Positions 241 through 56,290 of a DNA stretch of 64,000 nucleotides are shown piece by piece. Both the position numbers and the translations under genes were made by a program. How positions within the stretch are numbered: the stretch's first letter is position 1; every line of letters starts with the position of its first letter. A model generated the notes under the pieces. The model had not been told where the DNA came from. It saw only the letters and a program-made list of their open reading frames with translations, and did not search any database. This stretch comes from Thainema sp. (lineage in GTDB: Bacteria > Cyanobacteriota > Cyanobacteriia > Phormidesmidales > Phormidesmidaceae). The DNA is taken from positions 1-64,000 of the forward strand of contig JBQLZK010000028.1 in the NCBI GenBank assembly GCA_052168235.1, given 5' to 3'.

Positions 241-1446
241 GTGTCTAGGCAACATTACTTGTATTACAGTCAGCACCTCTCGCTGCAGCCCGGTTCGGCG
301 CATGAAATTCATGATGTGCTCTGTGCCAATGCGGCAGCAAATTTGGGCTATTCAGCCATCTTGGTCTATCCCAATGCAGCAGCAAACTGGCTGAATCCCT
401 CAACCTGGCTGGCTCCGGCGCGTTCTCAGGCACCAGACACGTATTTCCAAGAGTTCTACAATACCGATGCCGCGCTGACCGTTGCGCCGTTACCTGTCCC
501 CGAACCAGCGCTGCAAAAGAAGAGCAAGTTTTTGGATGCCAATACGCTGGCCTGTAAGTACTATCTGCCTGTTTATTTGGCACGGAAAACTGCGATCGCG
601 CATACCCGCAACTGGAATTTTGTCAAAGCCTGCGTTCAATACAACCTGCCCGTCGTATTCGAGCAACACTACTATCGTAAGCAGCCATTTGAACCCGACA
701 TTGTCAATCATCCCTGCTTCCAGGTGGCGATTACTCAATCACCGCTGACTCGCGACAGTTTAATCGAGTGCGGCATGCCCGCTGAAAAAGCGGTCTGGAT
801 GCACAATGGTTTCAGCCCGTCATTCCTCCAGCGTCAACCCACCGAAGCGCAAAAGTGGCGAGATGAGCTGCTCAGCCCCAATCGACAAAAGCTGGTGCTG
901 TACTCTGGCGCATTGGAAAAGTTCAAAGGAATTGACGTGCTGATTGCGGCGGCGAAAGAGCTACCCGATGTGCAAGTGGCGATGACGGGCGGCACGCCGG
1001 AGCAGGTGGCGCACTATCAGCAAAAGGCGCAGAATTTAGGCGTAGATAATGTCAAATTCCTGGGCTGGATTCATCCCCGCAATCGGTTGATTAGCCTCTT
1101 CCAAGCCGCAGACGTGCTAGCGCATCCCCACTGTTCAGGCCATTCGGCAGATTTCACCAATCCGGTGAAGCTGTTCCAGTATTTCTCGTCCGGTACACCA
1201 ATTGCCGCCACGGAAATTCTACCGCTGAAGGAGTTTCAAACACCGCAGCTAGCTGTTACCTGGTGCCCACCGGATGATCCAATTCAGTTCGCCCAGTGTG
1301 TGCGGCAGGCGCTTGAAACTTATCCACGTCGGCAAGAAGGCTACGCCCAAAACATTGACTTTGCGGCCCAGTTCACCTGGGAGAATCGAATTGAGCGGAT
1401 CTTGAGCTACGTGGATGAGAAGGTGCGATCGCAGTTACAGCATTGA
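241..1446 (+). CDS. Glycosyltransferase family 4 (GT-B fold)
   Basis: LYSGALEKFKGIDVLI, ADVL, NPVKLFQY and FTWENR motifs typical of GT4. Confidence 0.85.
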   Translation: MSRQHYLYYSQHLSLQPGSAHEIHDVLCANAAANLGYSAILVYPNAAANWLNPSTWLAPARSQAPDTYFQEFYNTDAALTVAPLPVPEPALQKKSKFLDANTLACKYYLPVYLARKTAIAHTRNWNFVKACVQYNLPVVFEQHYYRKQPFEPDIVNHPCFQVAITQSPLTRDSLIECGMPAEKAVWMHNGFSPSFLQRQPTEAQKWRDELLSPNRQKLVLYSGALEKFKGIDVLIAAAKELPDVQVAMTGGTPEQVAHYQQKAQNLGVDNVKFLGWIHPRNRLISLFQAADVLAHPHCSGHSADFTNPVKLFQYFSSGTPIAATEILPLKEFQTPQLAVTWCPPDDPIQFAQCVRQALETYPRRQEGYAQNIDFAAQFTWENRIERILSYVDEKVRSQLQH

Positions 1447-1474
1447 TTCAATCAAGCCTCGGTAACATCAGGGT

Positions 1475-2356
1475 ATGTCTAGCGTGGCAAACCTTATGTT
1501 TAACCATCAAACCATCAGAACCAACGGCATCCAGCTCCACTACGTCACCGAAGGCGAAGGGCCGCTCATGCTCATGCTGCATGGGTTTCCTGAATTTTGG
1601 TACTCCTGGCGGCATCAGATTCCGGAATTTGCCTCACAGTACAAAGTCGTCGCGCTCGATATGCGGGGCTACAACGACAGCGACAAACCCTCCCAAACAT
1701 CTGATTACGACATCAGTGAACTCATCCAAGACGTGAAAGGGGTGATCACTGGCTTGGGATATGACCGTTGCGTTTTGGTGGGTCACGACTGGGGAGGTGC
1801 GATCGCATGGACATTTGCCGAAGCCTATCCCGCAATGGTCGAGCGGCTAATTGTGCTTAATCTGCCCCATCCAGCCAAGTTTGCCGAAGCCTTTCAGAAG
1901 TTCAATCTGCAACAAATTGGCCGCAGTTGGTACACGTTCTTCTTCCAGCTTCCCTGGCTACCAGAATTCTTATTTGAGCAAAATAACTATCAAGCTATTG
2001 CTGAAATGTTCAGTAACACCGCCGTACAAAAGGATACCTTCACCCCAGAAGACCTGAGTGCCTATCGCCAAGCAATGGCCAAACCTGGAGCCATCACCGC
2101 CGCGCTGAACTACTATCGCAGTGCCCTCTGGCCGATTTTGACCAAGCCGCGAGCTTGGTCAGTTCTCCCCATGCCCACGCTGCTGATCTGGGGCGAACAG
2201 GATGTGGCTTTAGGCAAAGAGCTTACCTACGGCACCGAGCAATATGTCCGCGATCTCCAAATCCGCTACATTCCCGATTCAGGCCACTGGGTACAACAAG
2301 AAAAACCCACCCTCGTCAACCAATATATGCACGAATTTCTAGCCGAGCCTTGTTAA
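1475..2356 (+). CDS. Alpha/beta hydrolase, epoxide hydrolase-like
   Basis: HGFPE, GHDWGG nucleophile motif, GHWVQQE catalytic His. Confidence 0.9.
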   Translation: MSSVANLMFNHQTIRTNGIQLHYVTEGEGPLMLMLHGFPEFWYSWRHQIPEFASQYKVVALDMRGYNDSDKPSQTSDYDISELIQDVKGVITGLGYDRCVLVGHDWGGAIAWTFAEAYPAMVERLIVLNLPHPAKFAEAFQKFNLQQIGRSWYTFFFQLPWLPEFLFEQNNYQAIAEMFSNTAVQKDTFTPEDLSAYRQAMAKPGAITAALNYYRSALWPILTKPRAWSVLPMPTLLIWGEQDVALGKELTYGTEQYVRDLQIRYIPDSGHWVQQEKPTLVNQYMHEFLAEPC

Positions 2357-2360
2357 CGCA

Positions 2361-2433
2361 ATCCATCCACCCATCCACCCACCTACCCACCACCCATCTA
2401 CCCATCTACCCGTCCACCCACCTATCCACCCAC
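2361..2433. repeat. Short tandem repeat tract (CCATCCAC/CCATCTAC)n
   Basis: Degenerate 8-bp units directly visible. Confidence 0.85.
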
Positions 2434-2515
2434 AGATAAACTCTTATTACCAAACCCCTTCGCCCCACAAATCCACCTCTTATAGTGGCAGTTGTCCTCT
2501 GTCTACCGTTGCGCT

Positions 2516-2893
2516 ATGCAGGATTCACTCAATCGCCCACCCCAGCGCCCTGCGGTTGTTATTTGGCTGAAGGTTTACTGCGGAGTATTGGCTGCGATCT
2601 ATTTATTGATTGCGCTGTTGTCACTGGTCTTTTTCTCCGTTAACCCAGCCGAGTTGGAAATGACTGCGGAGGAAGCAACCATCATTGGCACGATCTTTCT
2701 GTTGATCGGCGGTGCATTGTTCATTGTGTTCTTGATTCCAATTTTCCTCAGACCGCGACCGTGGCTCTGGATCTATGACATCGTTGTGATCTGTCTGGGC
2801 TTTACGAGTTTTTGTATTTTGCCGTTTTCAGTTGCCCTGCTAATTTTCTGGCTGAAGCCAGAAGTAAAACGATATTTCGGCATGACGACTTGA
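2516..2893 (+). CDS. Hypothetical membrane protein (3-4 TM helices)
   Basis: Hydrophobic segments; ATG at 2516 preferred over TTG 2492. Confidence 0.75.
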   Translation: MQDSLNRPPQRPAVVIWLKVYCGVLAAIYLLIALLSLVFFSVNPAELEMTAEEATIIGTIFLLIGGALFIVFLIPIFLRPRPWLWIYDIVVICLGFTSFCILPFSVALLIFWLKPEVKRYFGMTT

Positions 2894-2902
2894 TGCACAA
2901 CC

Positions 2903-2943
2903 CAACAAAAAAAGAGAGCGCATCGCGCTCTCTTTTTTTGTTG
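2903..2943. terminator. Inverted repeat with GCATCGC core and A/T tails; intrinsic terminator
   Basis: caacaaaaaaagagagcg-catcg-cgctctctttttttgttg. Confidence 0.75.
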
Positions 2944-3157
2944 TAGAGGAATTGCGATCGCTTTTCTCTGTTCAAGTAAAACAAATTAAGAAGCGTGGCG
3001 TTCTCTTACATTTGCCACCCAAATCTGAGCTGCAATGAAATTTCAGCCTTCTTTGACGCTAATTTTGAAGCATAAGCACCACAATATAGACATATAAGTG
3101 CCTATTGATACAAGTGCCTATTACTGCTTCTCATTTTCGCTTCAGAGGATGTTTGTG

Positions 3158-4435
3158 ATGGTTACTTACTACAGCAACGGGGCTATTTGGTATGGAGATA
3201 CCAATGGGGTTTTAAAACATACAGGCAAAAAACAAGAGGTGGCAGTCATTGGGAACGATAACACCCTCTTTGGTGATGCGACCTATCAAATGATTAAAAA
3301 TGCTAAAGGCGGCAACGACACGCTCTTCGCAGAGGGAGATTCTAATAAACTCTATGGCGATGCGGGTGGAACGTACCAAGACGATGGTGGAATGTATGAC
3401 CATGCCAAAGGCGGCAACGATACACTCACCGTAAACGGAAATAGCAACTGGCTAATTGGCGATGCCTATAGAATGTTCGACAAAAACAAAGGGGGCAATG
3501 ACATCTTTCATGTAGTTGGGGATACTAATGACTTTATCCTTGGCGACGCTTATGAAATGTCTGGTCAGGCCAAAGGAGGTAATGACACCTTCAACATAGT
3601 CGGGGATAGCAACAACGTCTACGGTGATGCAAGCTACATGAATGACACCGCCAAAGGGGGGAACGACAGGATCACGGTCATTGGTAATGACAGCTACTCC
3701 CTCAGTGGTGATGCGTTTGAATTCAACGGCAATAACCAAGGCGGCAACGACACCATTACTGTCATCGGCCATGACAACAGCTTTGCTGGCGATGCCGATG
3801 CCATATTGCATAATTCTCGCGGCGGAAATGATCGCCTCACTGCACAAGGAAATGGTAATTCTCTAGTTGGGGACGCTGCTAGCCTAGGGGTATTTGAAGA
3901 ATACGATAATCCTATTGGCGGAAATGACACTCTTGTAGCAGTTGGGAACTATAACTCCCTCAGTGGCGATGCCTGGTGGATGGAGGCCTTCGCTAAAGGA
4001 CGCAACGATATTTTGCTTGGCATTGGTGACGGCAATTACCTCTATGGCGATACGCAGGTCATGCGAGAAACAGCTAAAGGAGGGAATGATGTATTGATCG
4101 GTATTGGTGGTGTTAACTATCTCTATGGTGATGCTCAATCCGTATACAACATCGAATTAGAGGAAATTCCGGTTTGGGAGGCTCAAGGCGGAGCAGATAC
4201 GTTCGTCTTACAAAGAGGCCTCGGCTACAACATTATCGGGGATTTTGACCGTAGCGAAGGTGACGTACTGGCACTTTACAAAGATCTCTACCAAAGATTG
4301 GGCAGATTAGCGATCACTACAAATGGGGCAGATACAGAAATTAGCTATGGTCACGATCTACTGGCTATTGTCTTAGGAGTTACCGACATTACACCCGCAG
4401 ACTTCACTCGATTCACATCAACTATCTGCGGCTAA
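3158..4435 (+). CDS. RTX-like glycine/aspartate repeat protein, probably Ca-binding and secreted
   Basis: About 11 repeats of GDA..(AK)GGND(T/I)L..G..N.L; C-terminal GGADTF..DF..GD region typical of type I secretion substrates; GAGGA RBS before ATG 3158. Confidence 0.7.
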   Translation: MVTYYSNGAIWYGDTNGVLKHTGKKQEVAVIGNDNTLFGDATYQMIKNAKGGNDTLFAEGDSNKLYGDAGGTYQDDGGMYDHAKGGNDTLTVNGNSNWLIGDAYRMFDKNKGGNDIFHVVGDTNDFILGDAYEMSGQAKGGNDTFNIVGDSNNVYGDASYMNDTAKGGNDRITVIGNDSYSLSGDAFEFNGNNQGGNDTITVIGHDNSFAGDADAILHNSRGGNDRLTAQGNGNSLVGDAASLGVFEEYDNPIGGNDTLVAVGNYNSLSGDAWWMEAFAKGRNDILLGIGDGNYLYGDTQVMRETAKGGNDVLIGIGGVNYLYGDAQSVYNIELEEIPVWEAQGGADTFVLQRGLGYNIIGDFDRSEGDVLALYKDLYQRLGRLAITTNGADTEISYGHDLLAIVLGVTDITPADFTRFTSTICG

Positions 4436-4461
4436 ACATCTGCCACTGCGATCGCAACCCT

Positions 4462-5598
4462 TTAGGATCTAATTTGCACAGGCATCACCAAATACGTCAT
4501 CTTAATCCCACCCACGGGCGTCAAAATCGCCGGACTCGTCGCTGTATTACACTGCATCTGAATCTCAGACGTATCGAGCGCCTTCAAACCATCCAGCAGA
4601 TAGCGCACGTTGAATGCAATATCCAGATCATCACCGGAAATCTGAGCCGGAATCGTTTCGCGTCCGCTGCCCACATCTTGAGCTTCCACCGAAAGCGTCA
4701 GCGTACTCTTCGCTCCGTCAAACGTCAGCTTCACAATATTATTTTTCTGGTCAGCCAGCACCGCAATCCGCTCCAGCGCCACAATCAGCAAGCGGCGCTC
4801 CACGGTGATTTGGCGCGAAAACTGGGTCGGGATTAGCTGCCGATAGTTGGGATACTGTCCTTCCAGTAAACGACTGGTAATCCGCTGGTAGTTTAATTCA
4901 AAACTGACCTGCCCCGGATCATGGCGAAGTGCGATCGCATCGACCCCTTGAGCCTGCATCAACATCCGCTCCAGCTCCCGCAGCGCCTTGGCCGGAACCG
5001 TTACTTCCATTTCGGTGTCCGATGCACTGGCGGCATCATCATCTTGCTCAACTGCTTCGACAACCGCCAGACGATGACCATCCGTGGCCGCAAATTCCAT
5101 GCTGTCCGCTTTTGATGTGAGGTGAACCCCGGTTAACACCTGCTTCGATTCGTCGGTACTCGTGGCAAACAGCGCTCCTTTCAAACCGTCCACCAGCATA
5201 TCCACCGACAAATTGGCAGGCTGGCCATTTTCCAACGACGGTAGTTCCGGGTATTCTTCCGCACTGAGTCCACGTACTTGGTACTGACCCGAACTACAGG
5301 TCAGTGTCACCAACATCTCCTCTTCCGTCAGCGTCAGGTCTTCTTCCGGCAGGCGCGACACAATGTCATTCAGCAGCTTTGCGGGCAGCGTCAGCACGCC
5401 GCCTTCCTCCACGTTGGCCTCAAAGCTGGTTTGAATGCCAAGGCTCAAATCAAATCCCGTCAGGCTCACGCGCTGAGCTTTTTGATCCGCTTTGAGCAGC
5501 ACATTTCCCAAAACAGGCAAGCTGGGGCGAGACGGCACAATGCGGCTAACAATCGTCAGATTGGCGCTGAGGTCACTTTGTGAGCAGGTGAGCTTCAT
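4462..5598 (-). CDS. dnaN: DNA polymerase III beta clamp
   Basis: ATDGHRLA, GQYPNY, IAFNVRYL, YLVMPVQIR. Confidence 0.97.
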   Translation of the reverse strand: MKLTCSQSDLSANLTIVSRIVPSRPSLPVLGNVLLKADQKAQRVSLTGFDLSLGIQTSFEANVEEGGVLTLPAKLLNDIVSRLPEEDLTLTEEEMLVTLTCSSGQYQVRGLSAEEYPELPSLENGQPANLSVDMLVDGLKGALFATSTDESKQVLTGVHLTSKADSMEFAATDGHRLAVVEAVEQDDDAASASDTEMEVTVPAKALRELERMLMQAQGVDAIALRHDPGQVSFELNYQRITSRLLEGQYPNYRQLIPTQFSRQITVERRLLIVALERIAVLADQKNNIVKLTFDGAKSTLTLSVEAQDVGSGRETIPAQISGDDLDIAFNVRYLLDGLKALDTSEIQMQCNTATSPAILTPVGGIKMTYLVMPVQIRS

Positions 5599-12158: not shown

Positions 12159-12719
12159 TTATAAATCGAGCCTGAAATCGGGTAGCACGTCTTCCCCAGA
12201 TAGCTGCGTCGGAACGGTTTGGCTCTCAATCGATTGATCTAAACGATAAATTTCGATTTGCTGATCTTGGGGATTGATTAGCCAGCCGAGGCGAACTCCA
12301 TTGGCCTGGTACTCTGCCATTTTGTTTCTGAGAACCGAAAGGTCATCCGTGCGCGATCGCAACTCAATCACAAAATCCGGTGCAAGCGGTGGAAATTTTT
12401 CCCGTTGCTCTGGAGTGAGCGCTAACCAGCGATCGCGAGTTACCCAAGCAACGTCGGGTGAGCGTTTTGCCCCATTGGGCAGCTGAAAAATGGTGGAGGA
12501 ACTAAACACAAATCCCAGCTGGCTCTGGCGATTCCACAGTTCAACGTCGGTAATTAGCCCGGCTTCACGATTGCCGCTTTCTCCACCCACTGGCGACATA
12601 ACAATGAGTTCTCCCTGTGCGGTCATTTCAAATCGCAGCGATTCGTTTTGCTGGCAGAGATGGTAAAACTGCTCGTCACTCAGTTGGGCTGTTGAGACAT
12701 CAATTGTGAGGATTTCCAT
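12159..12719 (-). CDS. Uma2 (DUF820) family endonuclease
   Basis: GELIVMSP, RSPDVAW, APDFVIEL, GVRLGWLINP. Confidence 0.92.
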   Translation of the reverse strand: MEILTIDVSTAQLSDEQFYHLCQQNESLRFEMTAQGELIVMSPVGGESGNREAGLITDVELWNRQSQLGFVFSSSTIFQLPNGAKRSPDVAWVTRDRWLALTPEQREKFPPLAPDFVIELRSRTDDLSVLRNKMAEYQANGVRLGWLINPQDQQIEIYRLDQSIESQTVPTQLSGEDVLPDFRLDL

Positions 12720-12788
12720 CGCGGCGATACCTCGATATGTGATGTGCGGCGTCATGTTTTTCAGTCTATTCGGTTTCTGTATAGAGAG

Positions 12789-19284: not shown

Positions 19285-19769
19285 GCTAATATTACAAAAT
19301 GTCAAGATAGTTTGCGTGAAACGCGAGTCTATATTAACTACCCATGCAATTTAGGTGCGGCAGGTTAGACTACATACATCAAGCAGTCCGTATGCAGCGT
19401 AGATATAGGTGCGATAGTGGCTTTGTTGCCAGCAAAAAATCCTAAGGCTGCTATCAGTCATCTGTTTTCCATTCGTCTCTAGCCGTTCGACTTCTTTTAC
19501 GACTTACACCTACGACTCACACAGCATTCACAATTCAAGCAAAATAGCGTTTTGCTGCTGTCCTGGTTATGCTCGCTCCTGGTCAGTGGCAGCCTGTTTC
19601 ATGACATCGGAATAGCCTACTGTTCAGATCAAGTCAGATCGGATTTGCTTCATATCTGCGTCTGAATGATCTGCTTAACCTATTCTTGATGTTGGTACGG
19701 ATCAATAAGGATCAAGTGGTGCTGAGATAAACTGCATTGCGATCGCACTATCCCTGGGAGGAACTATCC

Positions 19770-20192
19770 ATGGCGACAAAATTAGTCAAGTTACACAAGT
19801 CCCACGATCATCAATGGGTTGGAGCTAATGCTGCAGGGAATACAATCGTTGTGGGCGATCCGGCAAAGGCGACATGGGGACCAATGGAAATGCTACTCGT
19901 GGCGCTTGGCTCCTGCGTCGCGCAGTACGTCCTCAGTTTGATGCAGGCTAACCCGCAGGCATTTGAAAATTATCAAATCGAAGTTGAAGCCGAGCAGGCT
20001 GAAAGCCAACCGCAGCGTTATACCTCAATTATGGTGCGGCATGTTGCTCAGGGTGAAGATTTGACAGAAGCTGAGTTTCAGCGTGTTGCAGAATTGGCGT
20101 TGACGCAATATTGCGCGGTTGCAGCCAGTTTGAATGCAGAGATTAAAACGGAAGTGGTCATTGAAAGCACCCCTGCACCAGTGGTTTCGTAG
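19770..20192 (+). CDS. OsmC/YhfA family protein
   Basis: PMEMLLVALGSC and YCAVAASL cysteine motifs; GGAGG RBS. Confidence 0.85.
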   Translation: MATKLVKLHKSHDHQWVGANAAGNTIVVGDPAKATWGPMEMLLVALGSCVAQYVLSLMQANPQAFENYQIEVEAEQAESQPQRYTSIMVRHVAQGEDLTEAEFQRVAELALTQYCAVAASLNAEIKTEVVIESTPAPVVS

Positions 20193-20292
20193 CGCCTGTG
20201 TAACGTTAACGTTTTATGAGGGGCTTGTTGCACAAGCCCCTCATTGTCTTTGATTGAACATGAGTTTGGCAAAGCTACAAGATAAATGAAGT

Positions 20293-20336
20293 GCGATCGC
20301 AGTTCACCAACCCTCGCGGCAAGAAAGTGCGATCGC
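20293..20336. repeat. 44-bp HIP1-28bp-HIP1 junction element, copy 1
   Basis: gcgatcgc-agttcaccaaccctcgcggcaagaaagt-gcgatcgc. Confidence 0.85.
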
Positions 20337-20396
20337 AAAAAACTGGGGTTCTGCTGACTGATTTGATAACACAACAGCAAAGGTATTGGCTTCACG

Positions 20397-20729
20397 CTAC
20401 ATCAACACCAGAAGGCTTTCTGTTTCGCTACGTTCAAACTGAAGGATTGTTTCCAAGTTGTTTCTCAGAATTTGAACAATTTTTGATGTTGGGCAATTGC
20501 CGACCCGCAGATAGATAAATTTAGGTGGATGACCATAGAGTAGACTGCGCTGATGAAAATCAGCATCTTTGGAAACAATCACAAACTCATTTGCCTTTGC
20601 GTATTCCCAGATCTCCGCATCCTCTGTATTAATCAATCCCAAGCTTTTTACATGTTGAGAATTTGGATACAAATCGGTAATTCTTGGAATTATTCGGTCT
20701 GATAGATTTTCATCCAGTAGCAGTTTCAC
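20397..20729 (-). CDS. DUF5615 PIN-like toxin (VapC45-like), copy 1
   Basis: MKLLLDENLS, IVSKDADF; overlaps DUF433 gene. Confidence 0.88.
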   Translation of the reverse strand: MKLLLDENLSDRIIPRITDLYPNSQHVKSLGLINTEDAEIWEYAKANEFVIVSKDADFHQRSLLYGHPPKFIYLRVGNCPTSKIVQILRNNLETILQFERSETESLLVLM

Positions 20730-20950
20730 AGCGGTGCCACAAATAGCTTTTTCTCACGATCTGCTGCAAATGCAAGGCAAGCTTTAATATCTTCCGAGGT
20801 AAGTTCAGAAAAGTCTTCCAGAATTTCCGTCTCGGTCATTCCACCAGCCAAGTATTCTAGGATGTCATAAACTGTGATTCTCATTCTACGAATACACGGT
20901 TTCCCACTGCGCTTTCCAGGCTCAATCGTGATGATGTGTTGGTAGTCCAT
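20726..20950 (-). CDS. DUF433 antitoxin, copy 1
   Basis: GKPCIRRMRITVYDILEYLAGG. Confidence 0.9.
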   Translation of the reverse strand: MDYQHIITIEPGKRSGKPCIRRMRITVYDILEYLAGGMTETEILEDFSELTSEDIKACLAFAADREKKLFVAPL

Positions 20951-21013
20951 AAGAGCTGGCCAAGAGAAAATAGCTGTCTACATTATGACATTTGGCACTC
21001 TTGCTGCTGAGTT

Positions 21014-21057
21014 GCGATCGCAGTTTGCCAACCCTCGCTGTGAAAAAGTGCGATCGC
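21014..21057. repeat. 44-bp HIP1-28bp-HIP1 junction element, copy 2
   Basis: gcgatcgc-agtttgccaaccctcgctgtgaaaaagt-gcgatcgc. Confidence 0.85.
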
Positions 21058-21106
21058 ACTAAAAATCTGGATTCTTGCCGATTGCAATGGAGGAACAGCA
21101 AGAACA

Positions 21107-21406
21107 TCAGTTGGATTCCTCAAAGAGAGAAGGAAAATCACGGCGACCACTCACAACTCTTAGGATTTCAATACCATCGTCGAGAATTCTGTAAAAGATG
21201 ATGTAACCATCTAGCGACAGTCCTCTGAGTTCAGGACGAATGGTTGCGTAGCTTTTGCCGCTGCTGGGAAATGCTACAAGCTGCTGGCACTTGCGATTGA
21301 AAGCACGGAAAAACTTTTCACCCGCTTCGAGGCTATTTGCGGCAAAGTAATCAGCAATTTCGTTCAGGTCTTGGCTAGCCAGAACGTTGATAACATAGCG
21401 ACTCAT
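21107..21406 (-). CDS. ParE/RelE family toxin
   Basis: A.QDL.EI.DY, FP.SG, YIIFYR..IEILRVVSG.RD. Confidence 0.9.
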   Translation of the reverse strand: MSRYVINVLASQDLNEIADYFAANSLEAGEKFFRAFNRKCQQLVAFPSSGKSYATIRPELRGLSLDGYIIFYRILDDGIEILRVVSGRRDFPSLFEESN

Positions 21407-21663
21407 TCCTGGTTTGCCTGCTGGAAGCGCTCCAAAATGCCGTTGACAAACGTTTCGCCATCAACCGGAGCCGTATGCTTTGAGGCTTCAATTGCTGCAT
21501 CAACCTTTGCCCGAATGTTTTCGACCCACTCCGCTTCGGAGCGATCGTACTCATCGAGCAACCGCAAAGCAATTTCTAGAACCTCTTCGGCGGAGTGATA
21601 TTTACCCGCTTGCAGCTTGGTTTGGATAAAGCGTTCTTGGTCAGGAGTGAGACTGATACTCAT
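21403..21663 (-). CDS. ParD-type ribbon-helix-helix antitoxin
   Basis: MSISLT..ERFIQ..GKY.SAEEVL..ALRLL; overlaps parE start. Confidence 0.88.
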   Translation of the reverse strand: MSISLTPDQERFIQTKLQAGKYHSAEEVLEIALRLLDEYDRSEAEWVENIRAKVDAAIEASKHTAPVDGETFVNGILERFQQANQE

Positions 21664-21698
21664 ATAAACCTCTTTGCCAAACTACCAATTATTTTAGT

Positions 21699-21742
21699 GC
21701 GATCGCAGTTTGCCAATCCTCGCTGTGAGAAAGTGAGATCGC
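21699..21742. repeat. 44-bp junction element, copy 3 (right HIP1 degenerate)
   Basis: gcgatcgc-agtttgccaatcctcgctgtgagaaagt-gagatcgc. Confidence 0.85.
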
Positions 21743-21802
21743 AAAAATCTAGGGTTCTGCTGACTGATTTAATAACACAACAGCAAAGGTATTGGCTTCA
21801 CG

Positions 21803-22135
21803 CTACATCAACACCAGAAGGCTTTCTGTTTCGCTACGTTCAAACTGAAGGATTGTTTCCAAGTTGTTTCTCAGAATTTGAACAATTTTTGATGTTGGGC
21901 AATTGCCGACCCGCAGATAGATAAATTTAGGTGGATGACCATAGAGTAGACTGCGCTGATGAAAATCAGCATCTTTGGAAACAATCACAAACTCATTTGC
22001 CTTTGCGTATTCCCAGATCTCCGCATCCTCTGTATTAATCAATCCCAAGCTTTTTACATGTTGAGAATTTGGATACAAATCGGTAATTCTTGGAATTATT
22101 CGGTCTGATAGATTTTCATCTAGTAGCAGTTTCAC
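21803..22135 (-). CDS. DUF5615 PIN-like toxin, copy 2
   Basis: Protein identical to 20397-20729. Confidence 0.88.
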   Translation of the reverse strand: MKLLLDENLSDRIIPRITDLYPNSQHVKSLGLINTEDAEIWEYAKANEFVIVSKDADFHQRSLLYGHPPKFIYLRVGNCPTSKIVQILRNNLETILQFERSETESLLVLM

Positions 22136-22356
22136 AGCGGTGCCACAAATAGCTTTTTCTCACGATCTGCTGCGAATGCAAGGCAGGCTTTAATATCTTC
22201 CGAGGTGAGTTCAGAGAAGTCTTCCAGAATTTCCGCCTCGGTCATTCCACCAGCCAAATATTCTAGGATGTCATAAACTGTGATTCTCATTCTCCGAATA
22301 CACGGTTTACCACTGCGCTTTCCGGGTTCAATCGTGATGATGTGTTGGTAGTCCAT
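22132..22356 (-). CDS. DUF433 antitoxin, copy 2
   Basis: One amino-acid difference from copy 1 (TET vs TEA). Confidence 0.9.
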   Translation of the reverse strand: MDYQHIITIEPGKRSGKPCIRRMRITVYDILEYLAGGMTEAEILEDFSELTSEDIKACLAFAADREKKLFVAPL

Positions 22357-22483
22357 AAGAGCTGGCCAAGAAAGAATAGCTGTCTACATTATTACATCTG
22401 GCACTCTTGCTGCTAAGGTGCGATCGCAGTCTGCTAACCCCCAACGAAATATGAGTTACTGTAACATCCGTTGCGCTGAGCAA

Positions 22484-23545
22484 TTAGTGTGCAAACAAGC
22501 CAGAGCTTTGAGCATGATAGATATAAGCAAAACTTGAGTCTCTCAATTTAGCTCGATTATCGGAAACTTTCTTTTGTATGGATAGTGCAGCTTCAATTGA
22601 ACCTACTAATGCCACACTACCTAAAGAAGAGCTGAGGGGGATGCTGCTTATACTTGAGACGTAGCGAGCAACTTCTGCTGAAGTCAAGAGAATAGGTAAG
22701 CGAGATATCATAAGACCTTTTGCTGATCCCATAATTGCAGCGATTCCAAAGCCATCTAAGGCCTTCTTAAGATTTATAACCTCACGTTCAGCTTTTTCCT
22801 TGAACTTTACTAGAGTGATAGCAATCTCTCTGTTTGATACAGCCTGTGATAGTTCATTTTCAAGATCAGAAAACACCTCTCTCAGCGCATACAATTCACT
22901 TACATAACGCTGTTTGAATTCTAGGATGTCTGAGTAAGAGACGCTCGAAATTGGCAATGGAAGGCAATCAAAAAATCTAATATCTAGGCATGGAATACCA
23001 TTTATTTCATGCTCACTGCTTTTTCCAAAAGCAAAATTTTCATCTAAGATATTATCGGTTCCAACTGTCACAAATTGATCATCGCTTAGAGCAATGTGTT
23101 TGGCCAATATAGACATCATTACCCTAGCTGTACGTTGTTCTACATTAAGCCAAGAAGAATCTTTTGTTTCTTTTGCTAAACCATGACGATGCAGATAGGG
23201 GAGTATATCATTTGTGACTTTGTCATAATGAATCTCAAAATTGAAGTTCCAGTTAATTTTAGATCCTAGTGAATCCTTAAAACTTTTGGAACCCACAATT
23301 GATTTCAATTCGTCATTGAATTCTCTAACTGCTTGCCGTTTATTCTTTAGCCTCTCTGGTGATATGGGACGATATACATCTTTCTCTAAAAGAAAGGCCA
23401 TATCTGGATCTAATGGTTGTTCCTCGCTGTAATAAGAATCGCTGGGAACAATAGAGCTTATCTGATCCCAATACAGCAGAGCATGTTTTATCCATGTACT
23501 GTTTAAAATATCAATACTTGGGTAATAAAGTATTGTTCTATTCAT
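22484..23545 (-). CDS. AT-rich hypothetical protein, DUF6236-like
   Basis: LYYPSI..W.K.ALLYWD.ISSIVP N-terminus; DILEFKQRY..EL..LR motif; no HIP1. Confidence 0.65.
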   Translation of the reverse strand: MNRTILYYPSIDILNSTWIKHALLYWDQISSIVPSDSYYSEEQPLDPDMAFLLEKDVYRPISPERLKNKRQAVREFNDELKSIVGSKSFKDSLGSKINWNFNFEIHYDKVTNDILPYLHRHGLAKETKDSSWLNVEQRTARVMMSILAKHIALSDDQFVTVGTDNILDENFAFGKSSEHEINGIPCLDIRFFDCLPLPISSVSYSDILEFKQRYVSELYALREVFSDLENELSQAVSNREIAITLVKFKEKAEREVINLKKALDGFGIAAIMGSAKGLMISRLPILLTSAEVARYVSSISSIPLSSSLGSVALVGSIEAALSIQKKVSDNRAKLRDSSFAYIYHAQSSGLFAH

Positions 23546-23555
23546 AGTGAGTACT

Positions 23556-23582
23556 CGCAGACGTGTCGCTGATAACAATCAC
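23556..23582 (-). pseudogene. N-terminal remnant of a DUF3368 PIN toxin (MIVISDTSA)
   Basis: GTG overlapping the UPF0175 stop (GTGA); sequence matches the usual DUF3368 start, then stops. Confidence 0.6.
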
Positions 23583-23827
23583 AATCGTCCCAACTCCTGT
23601 AGGTTTTTCAAATCCAGCTCAAAATCTTCAACATCATAGGAATACAGTGGAATATTTCGCTGCTTCAGCAGTTGGCGAAATTCATTAACTGGCACATCAG
23701 CCAAACGGCTAGCATAGCCAAGCGTTAACCGACCTGTTTGAAAGAAATGTATGGCAATTTCCTGGCGAAACTCGCTGGGTGTAAGCTGAGAAGCTTGCAA
23801 AATTTCATCCGAAATAACAACACTCAT
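23579..23827 (-). CDS. UPF0175 family antitoxin
   Basis: EIAIHFFQTGRLTLGYASRLA..F.QLL..RNI. Confidence 0.85.
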   Translation of the reverse strand: MSVVISDEILQASQLTPSEFRQEIAIHFFQTGRLTLGYASRLADVPVNEFRQLLKQRNIPLYSYDVEDFELDLKNLQELGRL

Positions 23828-23890
23828 AAGAGCCACCTGCCTGACACATCTTTAGCGTAACCTAAACAATTTTGATGCCGTGCAATCATC

Positions 23891-25066
23891 TTATAGAGGA
23901 TTCGTGGCCCAAATTCGTTGCTGGGTTTTGAGATAGCGTTCGATGGAGTTTCCGGCCATGATGGCCATGTCGCGATTGGTTTTCCAGACGTAATCGATGG
24001 GTTCTAGGTAAGCTCGATAAGATGCGATCGCATCTTCATGCGTTGCAAAACTGCGATGTAATCCTTCAGATTCCTCGGTGAAACAGCGGCGCATTAGATC
24101 TTTAGCGGCGGCATCGTCTAAATCAAATACAGGCGAGGTCAAAACCTGATAGATTGTGCCGTAAAGGGCTGGGTCATACCAGAAAATGCCGTTGATGGCG
24201 GCTGAAACATGGAAGTGGTCTTTTTGGCAGCCTTGAATACCGAGATTGGCGACCCAGGTTTCCCATTTCGTCGGTGCAGGTAAGCACTTAACTACCTCAT
24301 GGGACAAAATGGTCGAGCTGCTGAAGTGGAAGCTCTCATCCATAAAGTGATAGTAGGAAATCTGGCTGGGAATGGGTGCGTTCTCTGGATCGGGATGCTG
24401 CTGGTAGAAGTTGCTCAGCTTGTGCTGCACCAGCTTGCCGTTGAGCGTTCGCAGTCCCCGCACGGTGAAATACTGACAGGCCAGAAACGTATTATCCGCC
24501 GACATTAGGCTAAAGGCGTGGAGCTGGAGCTTTTTCCAGAACCGCTTGAACCGATTCGTATCGGCAAAAATCATCGTCTCCGTAAACAGCGATCGCATGG
24601 GATAAGAAAACACCCGTTGCCCAAACAGCGCCAGTTCCACTTGTTCCGAGACGGTTTTGAACGCACTAATATGTGCCCGTTCCTGGTTGGATTCCAAGTC
24701 CAGCATGTCGCACACCTGCCGAAAGTCGTCCTGGGCAAACAGTCCGGCGGCACTGGTCTGATTGAAGTAAATGGTGGCAATTTCGGCGGAGATGATTTGG
24801 CTGTAGTACGCCACCCAGTACAGATGGTTGAGCATTATGCGCTGGCTGCTGCTGGCCTGTTCCCAGACGGGCGTGCCGTAGAGCAGCGAAAACTCTTCAG
24901 CCTGCCAATACTGATCGCGACAGTCGGCATAGTTGAAGCGCTGAGCCGCTTGATCGAGGAGCTGTGTACGATCCTGGGCTTTGTTGCGCCGATAGTTAAT
25001 TTCAATCTTTTTGCAAAGACGGGGATGCTCGGTTAGGGTGTTGGACTGGGGGGGAAGGAGAGGCAT
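23891..25066 (-). CDS. AurF/CylC-like dimetal-carboxylate enzyme
   Basis: SLLYGTP.W, SAEIAT, ERAH and DESFH (EXXH) metal motifs. Confidence 0.75.
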   Translation of the reverse strand: MPLLPPQSNTLTEHPRLCKKIEINYRRNKAQDRTQLLDQAAQRFNYADCRDQYWQAEEFSLLYGTPVWEQASSSQRIMLNHLYWVAYYSQIISAEIATIYFNQTSAAGLFAQDDFRQVCDMLDLESNQERAHISAFKTVSEQVELALFGQRVFSYPMRSLFTETMIFADTNRFKRFWKKLQLHAFSLMSADNTFLACQYFTVRGLRTLNGKLVQHKLSNFYQQHPDPENAPIPSQISYYHFMDESFHFSSSTILSHEVVKCLPAPTKWETWVANLGIQGCQKDHFHVSAAINGIFWYDPALYGTIYQVLTSPVFDLDDAAAKDLMRRCFTEESEGLHRSFATHEDAIASYRAYLEPIDYVWKTNRDMAIMAGNSIERYLKTQQRIWATNPL

Positions 25067-25199: not shown

Positions 25200-25408
25200 G
25201 GAACAGGGCTGTAGAAGGCTGTAAAGATTGAGTTTTTAATTTTGAATATTGCAATGATTCCCTAAACTCAAAACTTAACACTCTTCACTCCTCTCGCCTC
25301 TCGCCTCACTCTCCAAGCCGAGAATCTAAATTGTTGATTATCAGTGGGTGGCTAATAGATATACTGCGCTGAAATAGTGGGTAAAAGGCGTAATAGGAGA
25401 CAGAAAAG

Positions 25409-25756
25409 ATGGCGGCACTCAGCGGACAAAAATGCGTTCCTTGCGAGGGTGGGGTTCCTCCGGCGACGGAGGCGGAAATTGAGGAGATGAAGCAGCAGGT
25501 GCCGGATTGGCATATTACTCGTGTGGATGGTTCGCCTCGGCTGCATCGGGTGTTCTTTTTCAGTAATTTCCAGAAGGCGATGGAGTTTACGCAGCAGGTG
25601 GGTGATGTGGCGGAACAGGAAGGCCATCATCCGGTGCTGGTGACGGAGTGGGGTAAGGTGACGGTTACGTGGTGGACGCACGCGATCAATGGTCTACACC
25701 AGAACGATTTCATTATGGCTGCGAAAACGGATGAGGTGGCACAGCAGTTGAATTAG
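25409..25756 (+). CDS. phhB: Pterin-4-alpha-carbinolamine dehydratase
   Basis: CVPCEGG, AEQEGHHP, WTHAINGLHQNDFIMAAK. Confidence 0.9.
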   Translation: MAALSGQKCVPCEGGVPPATEAEIEEMKQQVPDWHITRVDGSPRLHRVFFFSNFQKAMEFTQQVGDVAEQEGHHPVLVTEWGKVTVTWWTHAINGLHQNDFIMAAKTDEVAQQLN

Positions 25757-25810: not shown

Positions 25811-26071
25811 ATGACTCAGCAACTGCTTGATCTAATTCAGCAAGCTGAAGCTCTCTCTATTGAAGATCAGCTTACTTTGATTGCTCACTTAGCTCAGAAT
25901 ATTAAAACCACAACCGATCAAACCAAATCGCTTAGAGAAGGCAAATCGCTCTGGCAAATTGCAGATGATTTTGTTGCTGATGTACCCGCAGAAACGCTGT
26001 CACAGCTTCCTAGGGATGGCGCTGTAGAACATGACCACTATATTTACGGCACAGACAGAGTTCAAGCATGA
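25811..26071 (+). CDS. Putative antitoxin of the downstream PIN toxin
   Basis: LPRDGAVEHDHYIYG C-terminus; ATGA overlap with PIN gene. Confidence 0.7.
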   Translation: MTQQLLDLIQQAEALSIEDQLTLIAHLAQNIKTTTDQTKSLREGKSLWQIADDFVADVPAETLSQLPRDGAVEHDHYIYGTDRVQA

Positions 26072-26572
26072 AGTTGCTGTTTGCTGATACCTTCTTCTGG
26101 ATTGCTTTTCTGAATCCAGCCGACGACTGGCATCATCAGGTTCGGCAAACGTTTGCTAGGCTTCAGCCTTGCCAACTGATCACCACCGATGAAGTACTTA
26201 CAGAGGTTTTAGCTTTCTATTCAAAGTCGGGGGTACAACTTCGAACAAAAGCTGCGAACCTAGTTCGCGATATTCTGGCCAGTCCTGATGTAGACGTTTA
26301 TCCTCAATCTCATCAGTCGTTTTTAGATGGGTTAACGCTATATGAACAACGGTTGGATAAGGGGTACAGCCTTGCTGACTGCATCTCAATGAATGTCATG
26401 AAGCGCCAAAATATTGCTGAAATTCTCACTCATGATAAACATTAGACTTTATCGGAAATTGTTTTGTAGCGCGGCTTCGCCGCGCTACAAAACAATTTCC
26501 AACCCCAAAAACTTTATTTCCAATAAAGTCTATTTCTCCCAGGAAGGATTCATAATTCTATTCCCCGATTAG
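26068..26572 (+). pseudogene. PIN-domain (VapC) toxin interrupted near its 3' end by a MITE
   Basis: FADTFFWIA..SLADCISM..LTHDKH then stop inside the insert; frame resumes FSQEGFIILFPD* at 26534-26572. Confidence 0.8.
26444..26531. mobile_element. 88-bp MITE with 3-bp ATT target duplication
   Basis: TIR agactttatcggaaat/atttccaataaagtct (15/16); ATT at 26441-26443 and 26532-26534; internal hairpin with GCTTCGC core. Confidence 0.85.
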
Positions 26573-28806: not shown

Positions 28807-28930
28807 GTGTCTGCGAGAGATATTTTTCACGAAGCCGTTAAACAAGCGCTGCAAAAAGAACAAACGATATCAGGTCTTGATAATTGTGTATGACCCAACC
28901 AACGAGGTGATTGTGCAATGGACAAGTTAG
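28807..28930 (+). pseudogene. xisH: xisH remnant with large internal deletion
   Basis: MSARDIFHEAVKQALQKEQ fused out of frame to KRYQVLIIVYDPTNEVIVQWTS*, overlapping xisI start. Confidence 0.75.
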
Positions 28931-29253
28931 ACCAGTATCGGGAATATGTTCAGGCATTGTTACGTCAGTACGCCGAGGAGGATGCTTCGGACAATGAGGT
29001 TGATGTTCAGCTTATCTTTGATGCTGAGCGAGATCATTACCAATGGATGAATGTGGGCTGGCAGGGATTGAGCCGGGTTTATCGTTGCATCATCTATTTC
29101 GATATTAAGGATGGGAAAATTTGGCTTCAGCAGAATCTAACGGATCAAAATCCGGCAGAAGAACTGGTCGAAATGGGTGTGCCGAGGGAAGATATTGTGC
29201 TGGGCTTACAGCCTCCTTATAAACGGCAATATACGGATTATGGTGCTGCTTGA
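28918..29253 (+). CDS. xisI: XisI family protein
   Basis: LIFD.ERDHYQW..VGW, DGKIWLQ, GVPREDIVLG. Confidence 0.9.
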   Translation: MDKLDQYREYVQALLRQYAEEDASDNEVDVQLIFDAERDHYQWMNVGWQGLSRVYRCIIYFDIKDGKIWLQQNLTDQNPAEELVEMGVPREDIVLGLQPPYKRQYTDYGAA

Positions 29254-55057: not shown

Positions 55058-56005
55058 ATGTGTCAGAACTGCGGCTGTAGCCAAGTTGGCGCGGTGACGA
55101 TTGACGGCATAGAAATGCCCGCGCATTCACATGAGGATACGCATGGTCACGCCCACGATCACATGCATGATCATCCTCATATCCATTCACCCTCCCACTC
55201 TCCTACCCTCCCACCCGATCACCCATCTACCCATCCACCCATCCACCCTCATACTCACCCACCCGATCACAACCATTCCCACACGCTAACAGTGCATCAG
55301 GGAATTCTGAGCAAAAATGATCGTTTAGCTGCCCAAAATCGCGAATCTTTTAAAGCGGCGGGTGTGTTGGTACTCAACGTTCTCTCCTCCCCAGGAGCCG
55401 GAAAAACGGCGCTTATTGAACGCTTAGCTCAAGATTTAGCCGCGCAAACGCCTCAAGATGGGCCGCAGTCTCTCAAAATGGGCGTTGTTGTGGGCGATTT
55501 AGCGACGGACAATGATGCTCAGCGGTTACGGCAGGCGGGTGCGCCAGCGGTGCAGATCACGACGGGTAATGCCTGTCATCTAGAAGCGGAAATGGTAGCG
55601 CAGTCGCTAACCCGATTAGACCAGTGGCCGGAGTTCGATCTGCTGGTAATTGAAAATGTGGGTAATCTGGTGTGCCCGACCAGCTATGACCTGGGCGAAA
55701 CGCTGCGGGTGGTGTTGCTGTCTACGACCGAGGGAGAAGATAAGCCGCTGAAGTATCCGGCCACGTTTAAGAGTGCGGATGTGGTGTTGTTGACGAAGGT
55801 GGATATTGCCGAAGCCGTGGGTTGCGATCGCACTTTAGCTCTCTCAAATATTCAACGAGTTGCACCACAGGCCAAAGTGTTTGAAGTCTCAGCCCGAACG
55901 GGGGCAGGGTTGTCGGATTGGTATGAGTATTTGGTGGGTCAGCTTGTGCTGCTGGAAAACAAACCAGTAGGGTGCTGTATAGCCCTTCGGGCATGGCTGC
56001 GCTAA
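55058..56005 (+). CDS. hypB: Hydrogenase nickel incorporation GTPase
   Basis: MCQNCGC, His-rich segment, [27 protein letters not shown]. Confidence 0.95.
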
Positions 56006-56022
56006 AGCGAAGCGTAACGCAC
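55967..56022. repeat. 56-bp composite REP-like element overlapping the hypB 3' end
   Basis: 50/56 identical to 25144-25199. Confidence 0.8.
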
Positions 56023-56195
56023 CGTTCATGGATTTACCTTGATGTAGTTGAGGTGTGGGAAAAAACCCGTTTGTGGTGGTGCTTGCCCCCACGCCCCCGC
56101 TGGAGGACGAGTCGCTTCCCCCAGACCCCCTCCGAAAAAATAACCTGTTGGGTTAGTTAAACGTTAAGGAACGTGGATTGAATTAATCCGCAACT

Positions 56196-56261
56196 GTAGG
56201 GGCAGGTTTAGCAGACCAATTTGCATCTTGTAATCGATTTGACGGCGAAACCTGCCCCTAC
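56196..56261. repeat. GTAG-type REP-like element
   Basis: gtaggggcaggttt...aaacctgcccctac. Confidence 0.75.
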
Positions 56262-56290
56262 GAGATGTCGAATTTAATTCACAATCCCAA

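Follow-up and report, generated by a model that had tools for sequence, protein, structure and literature searches.

Array-specific HIP1-framed units join predicted toxin-antitoxin cassettes whose content and order differ between relatives in Thainema

A 64,000-nt stretch of DNA from the cyanobacterium Thainema sp. (GenBank assembly GCA_052168235.1, contig JBQLZK010000028.1, positions 1 to 64,000; hereafter the window) carries three predicted two-gene type II toxin-antitoxin (TA) operons, which lie in the order A, B, A' along the window and are all on the minus strand, co-oriented as the initial annotation had it. A and A' are DUF433/DUF5615 pairs and B is a ParD/ParE pair, and the junctions of this array are occupied by a short element, termed E, that is framed by the octamer GCGATCGC, called highly iterated palindrome 1 (HIP1). 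The locus raises the question of why unrelated cassettes should have one junction sequence in common, and what HIP1, which has been known for three decades without, to our knowledge, an agreed function, might be doing there. The anatomy is plain: each array has a unit of its own with HIP1 at its bounds, and in relatives the same units enclose other cassettes or the cassettes in another order. The reading that we hold to be probable is that recombination at or between the HIP1 octamers of the array-specific junction modules gains, loses, duplicates, and reorders cassettes; we infer from sequence comparison that this exchange is located at HIP1 and which enzymes would act.

The junction unit and the cassettes that it joins

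The arrangement GCGATCGC-28 nt-GCGATCGC is found at 20293 and 21014, with a start-to-start distance of 36 nt in each of the pairs 20293/20329 and 21014/21050, and a lone HIP1 lies at 22420. The initial annotation had listed HIP1 starts 36 bp apart at 20293, 21014, and 21699 with a half copy at 22420, which is correct except that the second HIP1 of the third copy, at 21735, is the degenerate GAGATCGC. Its 44-bp element is likewise present as HIP1-28 nt-HIP1, but the conserved part is larger: in a coding-strand alignment it begins ~22 nt before the first HIP1, within the toxin 3' untranslated region (UTR), and stops exactly at the second HIP1, where each cassette's own leader starts, giving a full unit of ~66-70 nt. 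The E2 44-mer differs from E3 by 3 mismatches (0 matches expected from 100 shuffles), and a repeat search returned a 56-nt repeat present three times (82% to copy 1), with a 23-nt left part present four times at spacings of 721, 685, and 721. Within the spacer, 6 of 28 bases differ between E1 and E2, 2 between E3 and E2, and 6 between E3 and E1. Because HIP1 is hyperabundant both in the window (83 observed vs 1.84 expected) and in the 7.54-Mb genome (8,979 copies, of which 14 neighboring pairs are exactly 36 apart), the octamers alone carry little weight; the common 28-nt spacer, not the octamers, is the real signal, and it is far beyond chance. The initial annotation had proposed seeking the 44-mer in this genome and its relatives, and among 173 genomes of the family the spacer is found only in this array and in that of a congener, with different flanking genes; the 7.54-Mb genome holds no copy outside the array with up to 7 substitutions allowed. 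Rfam returned nothing relevant for the element (1 match, E = 0.83).

Repeats of this kind could be roleless remnants of one tandem duplication of element plus cassette, as the likeness of A and A' (96% over 745 nt, 1,406 nt apart) would suggest, but the pair has a composite history. The toxin genes are identical (20366-20714 vs 21772-22120, 0 differences), the antitoxin and leader differ at 15 sites in ~280 nt (about 5%), and over ~250 nt of its antitoxin half A' has a single difference from the copy in G001, which is labelled a metagenome-assembled genome (MAG) and is the one other genome of the genus that was compared with the source genome (G000). Because the toxin halves are identical and the antitoxin halves diverged, with that of A' nearly identical to the congener's, A' is the orthologue of the congener cassette and A a diverged second copy, the toxin part having been homogenized by gene conversion so that the pair is a mosaic. 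This mosaic rules out a simple fresh duplication of A into A'. Moreover, E flanks unrelated cassettes (ParDE in the window, PIN and Fic pairs in G001), and E3 is nearer to E2 than to its supposed duplicate E1. The claim in the initial annotation that the element is more than a by-product of a 1406-bp duplication can be kept, but the notion of A and A' as simple duplicates cannot, and a tandem duplication as the source of the repeats is highly improbable.

Cassette content and order between relatives

The congener provides the first line of evidence for exchange. At the E array of G001, DUF6236 is followed by a half element, a DUF433/DUF5615 pair, E, a PIN pair, E, a Fic pair, a single HIP1, and a photolyase-like gene, whereas the window array ends with E, ParDE, E, DUF433/DUF5615, E. 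The PIN cassette of G001 consists of an 80-aa open reading frame (ORF) and a PIN gene (2.5e-10) and is VapBC-like, and the Fic cassette consists of a DUF6290-like gene and a Fic gene (8.7e-20) and is Fic/Doc-like; neither has a blastn match of at least 150 nt in the source genome, and cassette B (ParDE) has only a 92-nt, 71% match in G001. The spacers of the two G001 E copies nevertheless show 0/28 and 1/28 differences from E2. An inversion or translocation in G001 parts the OsmC-like gene from the array (window ~20200-20290; G000 C8:~68120), and the other of its breakpoints, on contig C8 (~68120), is without HIP1.

Beyond the genus, a degenerate E pattern with up to 3 mismatches was found in 31 of 173 family genomes, compared with 8 genomes for a reversed control pattern; the matches outside the genus were all at the maximum of 3 mismatches, 12 of them being one conserved string in one genus, and true E copies among the 173 genomes were confined to the source genome and G001. 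Scans of metagenome and genome contigs with a degenerate 18-mer left, among the matches listed, only a congener contig as real after filtering, and a viral contig collection gave 0 matches. Five plasmid records carry DUF433 homologues (one, H1, also DUF5615), with no E match among the matches listed. The Anabaena cylindrica PCC 7122 plasmid pANACY.01 (NC_019772.1 101299-107839) has a run of five TA pairs or fragments by annotation, of which four are co-oriented; it was not counted as a further case, since all that two of its junctions share is 19 nt next to one HIP1.

Contigs from public sequencing runs, none of which contains half of the words of the stretch, were compared with window positions 20900-23400 and add further neighbors of E. 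For example, a 5,604-nt DNA contig from run X5 carries E, ~800 nt absent from 20900-23400, E with an A-type cassette (~96%), 292 other nt, and E, and a contig from X3, an RNA library of a related study, carries the leader and 5' end of A with E as far as 21040, and after 286 nt of other sequence E again; X3 and X5 possibly represent one community and were counted once. In X1, a 169-nt contig has E with unrelated sequence on either side and other contigs have ParDE followed by an E variant, and X2 gave two short contigs only, inside the toxin gene.

A second array, termed F, lies on the plus strand of contig C127 of G000 and comprises six cassettes, namely a PIN pair, a family-less pair, a DUF433/DUF5615 pair, a ParE-like pair, another unnamed pair, and a HigB/HTH pair. 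Its unit has a sequence of its own, GCGATCGC-25 to 27 nt-GCGATCGC, and homology between junctions starts and stops at the octamers. The order 1-2-3-4-5-6 in G000 corresponds to x-5-3-2-6 in G001, cassettes 1 and 4 not being found there, and the alignment blocks of the two genomes meet inside the HIP1-loop-HIP1 unit: at 4/4 internal junctions of the G001 array, a cassette's 3' end remains its own as far as the first HIP1, as does a cassette's leader from the second onward. The G001 F array (G001:C16:46000-58000, 845-4567) adjoins a 731-aa Argonaute-like PAZ (PAZ_3) protein, a GIY-YIG nuclease-like gene, and a DUF6883/DUF4926 pair, a setting that resembles a defence island.

Smaller rearrangements are seen at other loci. 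At a YoeB/Phd locus, two HIP1-delimited non-coding modules are ordered P-Q in G000 and Q-P in G001, where the YoeB/Phd cassette is part of a three-cassette array at a different genomic site, and the cassette is followed downstream by Q in G000 and by P in G001. The swap needs exchange at the octamers, and little beyond HIP1 and a few bases is shared there. At a UPF0175/DUF3368 locus, an aspartyl-protease-like pair present in G000 and absent in G001 lies beside HIP1-framed modules, and tandem HIP1 modules occur at C18:25234-25416 and at the C43 locus. The C18 run, over 25234-25453, consists of six HIP1-framed modules with two alternating loop types (35 and 38-39 nt periods).

The comparison of cassette order between relatives that the initial annotation had suggested thus turned out in favor of its proposal that HIP1-bounded units are cassette recombination sites, although we infer the exchange itself: the slots between E copies differ, the F order is permuted with junctions inside the unit, and, rather than an invariant order with breakpoints elsewhere, content and order vary with breakpoints within the element. 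What would be expected of HIP1 as a recombination site, breakpoints at GCGATCGC, is seen comparatively at 4/4 F junctions, in the P/Q swap, and at the borders of repeats.

A blind screen of the source genome for local direct repeats containing HIP1 points in the same direction. It returned 21 pairs; besides those of the E array and C127, 7 loci were judged intergenic, with contents that include ParE and BrnT pairs, Uma2, XisH/XisI, YoeB/Phd, UPF0175/DUF3368, DUF433/DUF5615, and one unknown, and the remaining pairs looked intragenic, one of which was checked against its ORF (C5, inside a CobO-like ORF). Eight further repeat pairs of the genome likewise have flanking direct repeats with a start or end at HIP1 or a degenerate HIP1. 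Pfam hits to TA domains (40, of which PIN 12, ParE 6, DUF433 17, and Phd 5) had a direct repeat with HIP1 on their flanks, no more than 1,300 nt away, in 8/40 cases vs 2/600 random places, and a stricter genome-wide version gave 5/40 vs 31/20,000. In other genera, the same layout was found at 2/10 loci with homologues of these cassettes, for example as G-HIP1-TCCCAAYAACTGG-HIP1 three times around two cassettes.

The framing by HIP1 might also have arisen if the 28-nt spacer with one HIP1 were a tiny mobile insert, akin to a MITE (miniature inverted-repeat transposable element) or to the short dispersed repeat (SDR) SDR5, that landed independently in HIP1s at existing junctions. Insertion at GCG^ATCGC with complementary ends would yield exactly HIP1-loop-HIP1, and SDR5 is described as behaving in this way in Nostoc (PMC4390886). 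Such an insert would be expected to be dispersed, but the E spacer recurs, among the 173 family genomes, only in the congener's array, and each of the 10/10 loop families tested keeps to a single locus, one weak copy elsewhere being the most that was seen; they are therefore not dispersed mobile repeats, and a mobile insert is very unlikely.

Possible agents, transcription, and comparison with known systems

If the units are exchange joints, a dedicated enzyme might act on the paired HIP1 sites or their hairpin and insert cassettes while duplicating the unit each time, as IntI does on attC or as in CRISPR integration. That a full unit stands at each of the internal junctions in the E and F arrays would suit such an enzyme, as would the bounding of the F, C4, C43, and C46 units by HIP1 or degenerate HIP1 and the occurrence of scar-like degenerate HIP1s. 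One of these octamers, GCGATTATC, is common to two unrelated junctions (L013 14578-14586; L285 ~1940-1950) and may be the footprint or scar of an event at the HIP1 center. On the other hand, no gene candidate emerged. No recombinase or transposase family was found among the 26 ORFs of at least 90 aa in the 8-36 kb region of the window, none was found beside the second array, and the arrays are without a common neighbor gene. The top score with the integron integrase model TIGR02249 was 69.6 bits, where the cut-off is 265, and came from another contig, and the hits in the genome to Phage_integrase (PF00589; 5), Y1_Tnp (2), and Resolvase (1) all lie on contigs other than that of the array, in keeping with the initial remark that no integrase is nearby. 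We regard a dedicated enzyme as unlikely.

The units might instead be transcriptional punctuation under selection, that is a terminator, an mRNA-stabilizing hairpin, an insulator, or a promoter module, the cassette differences being due to generic processes. They sit exactly between the toxin stop and the next leader, and the two HIP1 palindromes of a unit pair as a 10+3-bp hairpin whose predicted energy is -7.5 to -13.8 kcal/mol in E and between -12.5 and -16.3 kcal/mol in the second-array unit (z -1.9 to -6.5). On the coding strand, the first HIP1 can be read as a 5-bp mini-hairpin followed by TTTTT, and TTGGCA of E3 supplies the -35 hexamer of a promoter-like site for cassette B (TTGGCA, 17 nt, AATAAT, 10/12). 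However, a scan for terminators returned nothing at the E copies, and the hairpin carries little weight alone because any two HIP1s would pair. Punctuation also leaves unexplained why unrelated cassettes have one array-specific unit in common, why breakpoints fall inside the unit, and why P and Q are swapped at HIP1. Punctuation as the whole explanation is thus improbable, but the small palindrome with its T run and the -35 hexamer do count against recombination as the sole role, since the role of the unit could be transcriptional instead of or besides recombinational.

Several other observations weigh against HIP1-located exchange. Neither an excised circle nor a deletion joint nor an enzyme was seen, and the basis consists of two draft genomes, one of them a MAG, together with a few short-read contigs. 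Of the 40 TA-domain hits, 32 were without a flanking repeat and 3 of the 8 positives lie within the E array itself. One border of E is not at HIP1, conservation running on into the toxin 3' UTR. Between E3 and the corresponding copy in G001 there are 6 differences in 44 nt, and E orthologues are not better conserved than genes, for which reason purifying selection on E was dropped as an explanation. Misassembly or strain mosaics across the repeats are also still conceivable, although the risk is limited, a unit being smaller than a read and the copies not being identical.

The most probable scheme, recombination at or between HIP1 octamers, would run as follows. Each cassette would be self-contained, with its own leader and promoter, and joined to the next by an array-specific HIP1-framed module in which HIP1, a few identical flanking bases, and the loop between would serve as exchange sites. 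Exchange between modules on sister chromosomes, excised circles, or the DNA of relatives would delete, duplicate, insert, and reorder cassettes. Where chromosome copies exchange unequally from one HIP1 to another, a loop would be multiplied in tandem and small non-coding modules would be permuted; a circle released between two HIP1s, or DNA acquired from a relative, could then enter at HIP1 or across the unit; and TA addiction would keep the cassettes, so that they persist and accumulate. These three steps, tandem loop multiplication, entry of a circle or DNA, and addiction, would reproduce every layout seen. The scheme would involve no dedicated integrase, the likely agents being HIP1-stimulated host recombination or short-repeat RecA-independent recombination at palindromes. 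It fits reports of HIP1-enhanced integration and transformation and of HIP1-linked recombination. For example, HIP1 is reported to raise homologous integration and transformation in Synechococcus 7002 (Kamoku & Nielsen 2024, 10.1101/2024.09.10.611283), and HIP1-linked plasmid recombination (Akiyama 1998) and excision (Robinson 1997), site-specific and illegitimate in nature, are cited in PMC4390886, PMC5861425, and PMC9239245. These reports share with the present case HIP1 as a crossover or recombination-enhancing site but, as cited, concern laboratory constructs or single rearrangements, whereas natural cassette arrays are seen here. Among the papers listed by searches of openly available full text, none gives an account of arrays of TA or other cassettes punctuated by HIP1-framed units. 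The nearest cyanobacterial parallel is a ParE/ParD module of Microcystis aeruginosa fenced by two identical 152-bp direct repeats (PMC7935541); it is likewise a type II TA pair with flanking direct repeats, which contain an inverted repeat, but is a single module with 152-bp repeats, for which the passages describing it report no HIP1 framing, no array, and no inter-strain comparison.

Cassette arrays with short repeated joints are familiar from other systems. The Vibrio superintegron has near-identical Vibrio cholerae repeat (VCR) attC sites and many TA cassettes. The present arrays resemble sedentary chromosomal integrons (PMC4889954, PMC5371416) in that their small cassettes are co-oriented and are each followed on the 3' side by a homogeneous array-specific repeat, and in carrying TA cassettes with their own promoters, with a cassette content that varies between relatives, but they are without intI and without attI/attC core sites, their units are 29-80 nt long and HIP1-framed, and there are several independent arrays per genome, each with its own unit. 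The attC core sites (RYYYAAC ... GTTRRRY) are absent by reading of the sequence, GTTGGCA and GGCAAAC being the nearest and failing the consensus, so that the element is, as first noted, not an attC; an attC-like alternative stem, AACCCTAG/CGAGGGTT, was dropped, being broken among copies without compensation. The features of a cluster of attC sites lacking an integrase (CALIN), namely co-oriented cassettes, a site 3' of each, and content that varies between strains, are found here in architecture only. The description of the locus as integron-like in the initial annotation is therefore apt as an analogy of architecture and behavior but not as a statement of integron membership.

In the pdif modules of Acinetobacter plasmids, XerC/XerD sites flank modules, many of them TA modules, and the sites are 28 bp long (11-6-11) and alternate in inverted orientation. 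The likeness lies in discrete, often TA, modules that are shuffled through short host-recognized sites without a dedicated recombinase gene; unlike pdif, the units described here are chromosomal and cyanobacterial, have HIP1 at both ends, and are all direct repeats, so that no alternating inverted XerC-6 nt-XerD arrangement is found among them. Repetitive extragenic palindromic sequences (REPs) occur as tens to hundreds of scattered copies and have a link with REP-associated tyrosine transposases (RAYTs). Together with bacterial interspersed mosaic elements (BIMEs) and REP doublets forming hairpins (REPINs), they share with the present units the form of extragenic palindromic hairpins between convergent or co-oriented genes, but here each unit is confined to one locus and the 2 Y1_Tnp hits are elsewhere; the many dispersed copies expected of REPs, REPINs, MITEs, or SDRs are not seen for the E spacer or for any of the 10 loop families. 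Clustered regularly interspaced short palindromic repeat (CRISPR) arrays also follow a repeat-insert-repeat plan with a partly palindromic repeat at every junction, but the inserts here are expressed operons of 550-830 nt, the units are imperfect, and there are no adjacent Cas genes. G000 has three CRISPR arrays of its own (C9:~55600-58550, C55:~23090-24075, and C150:~1000-1730), and the repeat of the C55 array ends in the HIP1-like GTGATCGCGAC.

Surroundings of the array and implications

The features of the array and its borders are collected in Table 1. DUF433/DUF5615 and ParD/ParE are adjacent small genes with family signatures and 4-nt overlaps, the characters of type II TA pairs, and the cassettes are predicted TA modules on this basis. 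The half element E4 has an orthologue in G001, and the UPF0175/DUF6236 pair adjoins the array in both congeners; this pair may be a TA-like or defence pair, the UPF0175 protein having a weak PADLOC match to PDC-S70 (9.6e-06), and PADLOC gave nothing else.

Table 1. Positions of the cassettes, junction elements, and flanking features of the E array in the window
Feature	Position	Strand	Remarks
OsmC-like gene	19737-20192		low-coordinate neighbor of the array
Terminator-like hairpin 3' of the OsmC-like gene	20216-20244	+	marks the distal array border
Junction element E1 (HIP1-28 nt-HIP1)	20293-20336	-	most diverged copy; conserved extension to ~20362
Cassette A toxin, DUF5615 (PIN-like), 110 aa	20397-20729	-	2.5e-34
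Cassette A antitoxin, DUF433, 74 aa	20726-20950	-	2.6e-24
Junction element E2	21014-21057	-	conserved extension to ~21085; single-stranded DNA hairpin, -11.8 to -13.8 kcal/mol
Cassette B toxin, ParE, 99 aa	21107-21406	-	1e-15
Cassette B antitoxin, ParD-like, 86 aa	21403-21663	-	2.9e-07
Junction element E3	21699-21742	-	second octamer degenerate, GAGATCGC
Cassette A' toxin, DUF5615	21803-22135	-	identical to A over 20366-20714
Cassette A' antitoxin, DUF433	22132-22356	-	
Half or diverged element E4, one HIP1 and ~20 similar bases	22420-22446	-	proximal array border
UPF0175 (23579-23836, 85 aa) and DUF6236 (22484-23578, 364 aa)	22484-23836	-	two-gene unit

The wider neighborhood consists of housekeeping genes (transketolase, FabF-like, acyl carrier protein). 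A further TA-like pair at 25811-26445 (+), comprising an 86-aa family-less ORF and a 125-aa PIN gene (1.3e-07) with a 4-nt overlap, was not flanked by any direct repeat with HIP1 according to the genome-wide screen. The window also contains a Uma2-family gene at 12159-12752 (-) (9.3e-46) and a XisI gene at 28918-29250 (+) (9.9e-46), the latter directly followed by three HIP1s (29264, 29304, and 29326); both families are also found between HIP1-framed repeats elsewhere in the genome.

HIP1-framed arrays appear as a variant of repeat-mediated cassette exchange, within a small sample of genomes. If the favored reading holds, they would amount to an integron-like outcome without an integron integrase, would constitute natural, sequence-level evidence for HIP1-framed modules as joints for the exchange of accessory cassettes, and would explain the clustering of TA and similar small selfish or defence cassettes in cyanobacterial chromosomes. 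A bolder idea, to which we give rather little credence, is that paired HIP1s mark an integrase-free form of cassette capture that is widespread in HIP1-rich cyanobacteria, in which a HIP1-directed activity would cut two neighboring octamers, or act on their hairpin, insert a cassette, and regenerate the unit on both sides, in the way that a CRISPR repeat is duplicated at integration. Were this true, such capture would give HIP1 a concrete function, the building of accessory-gene arrays.

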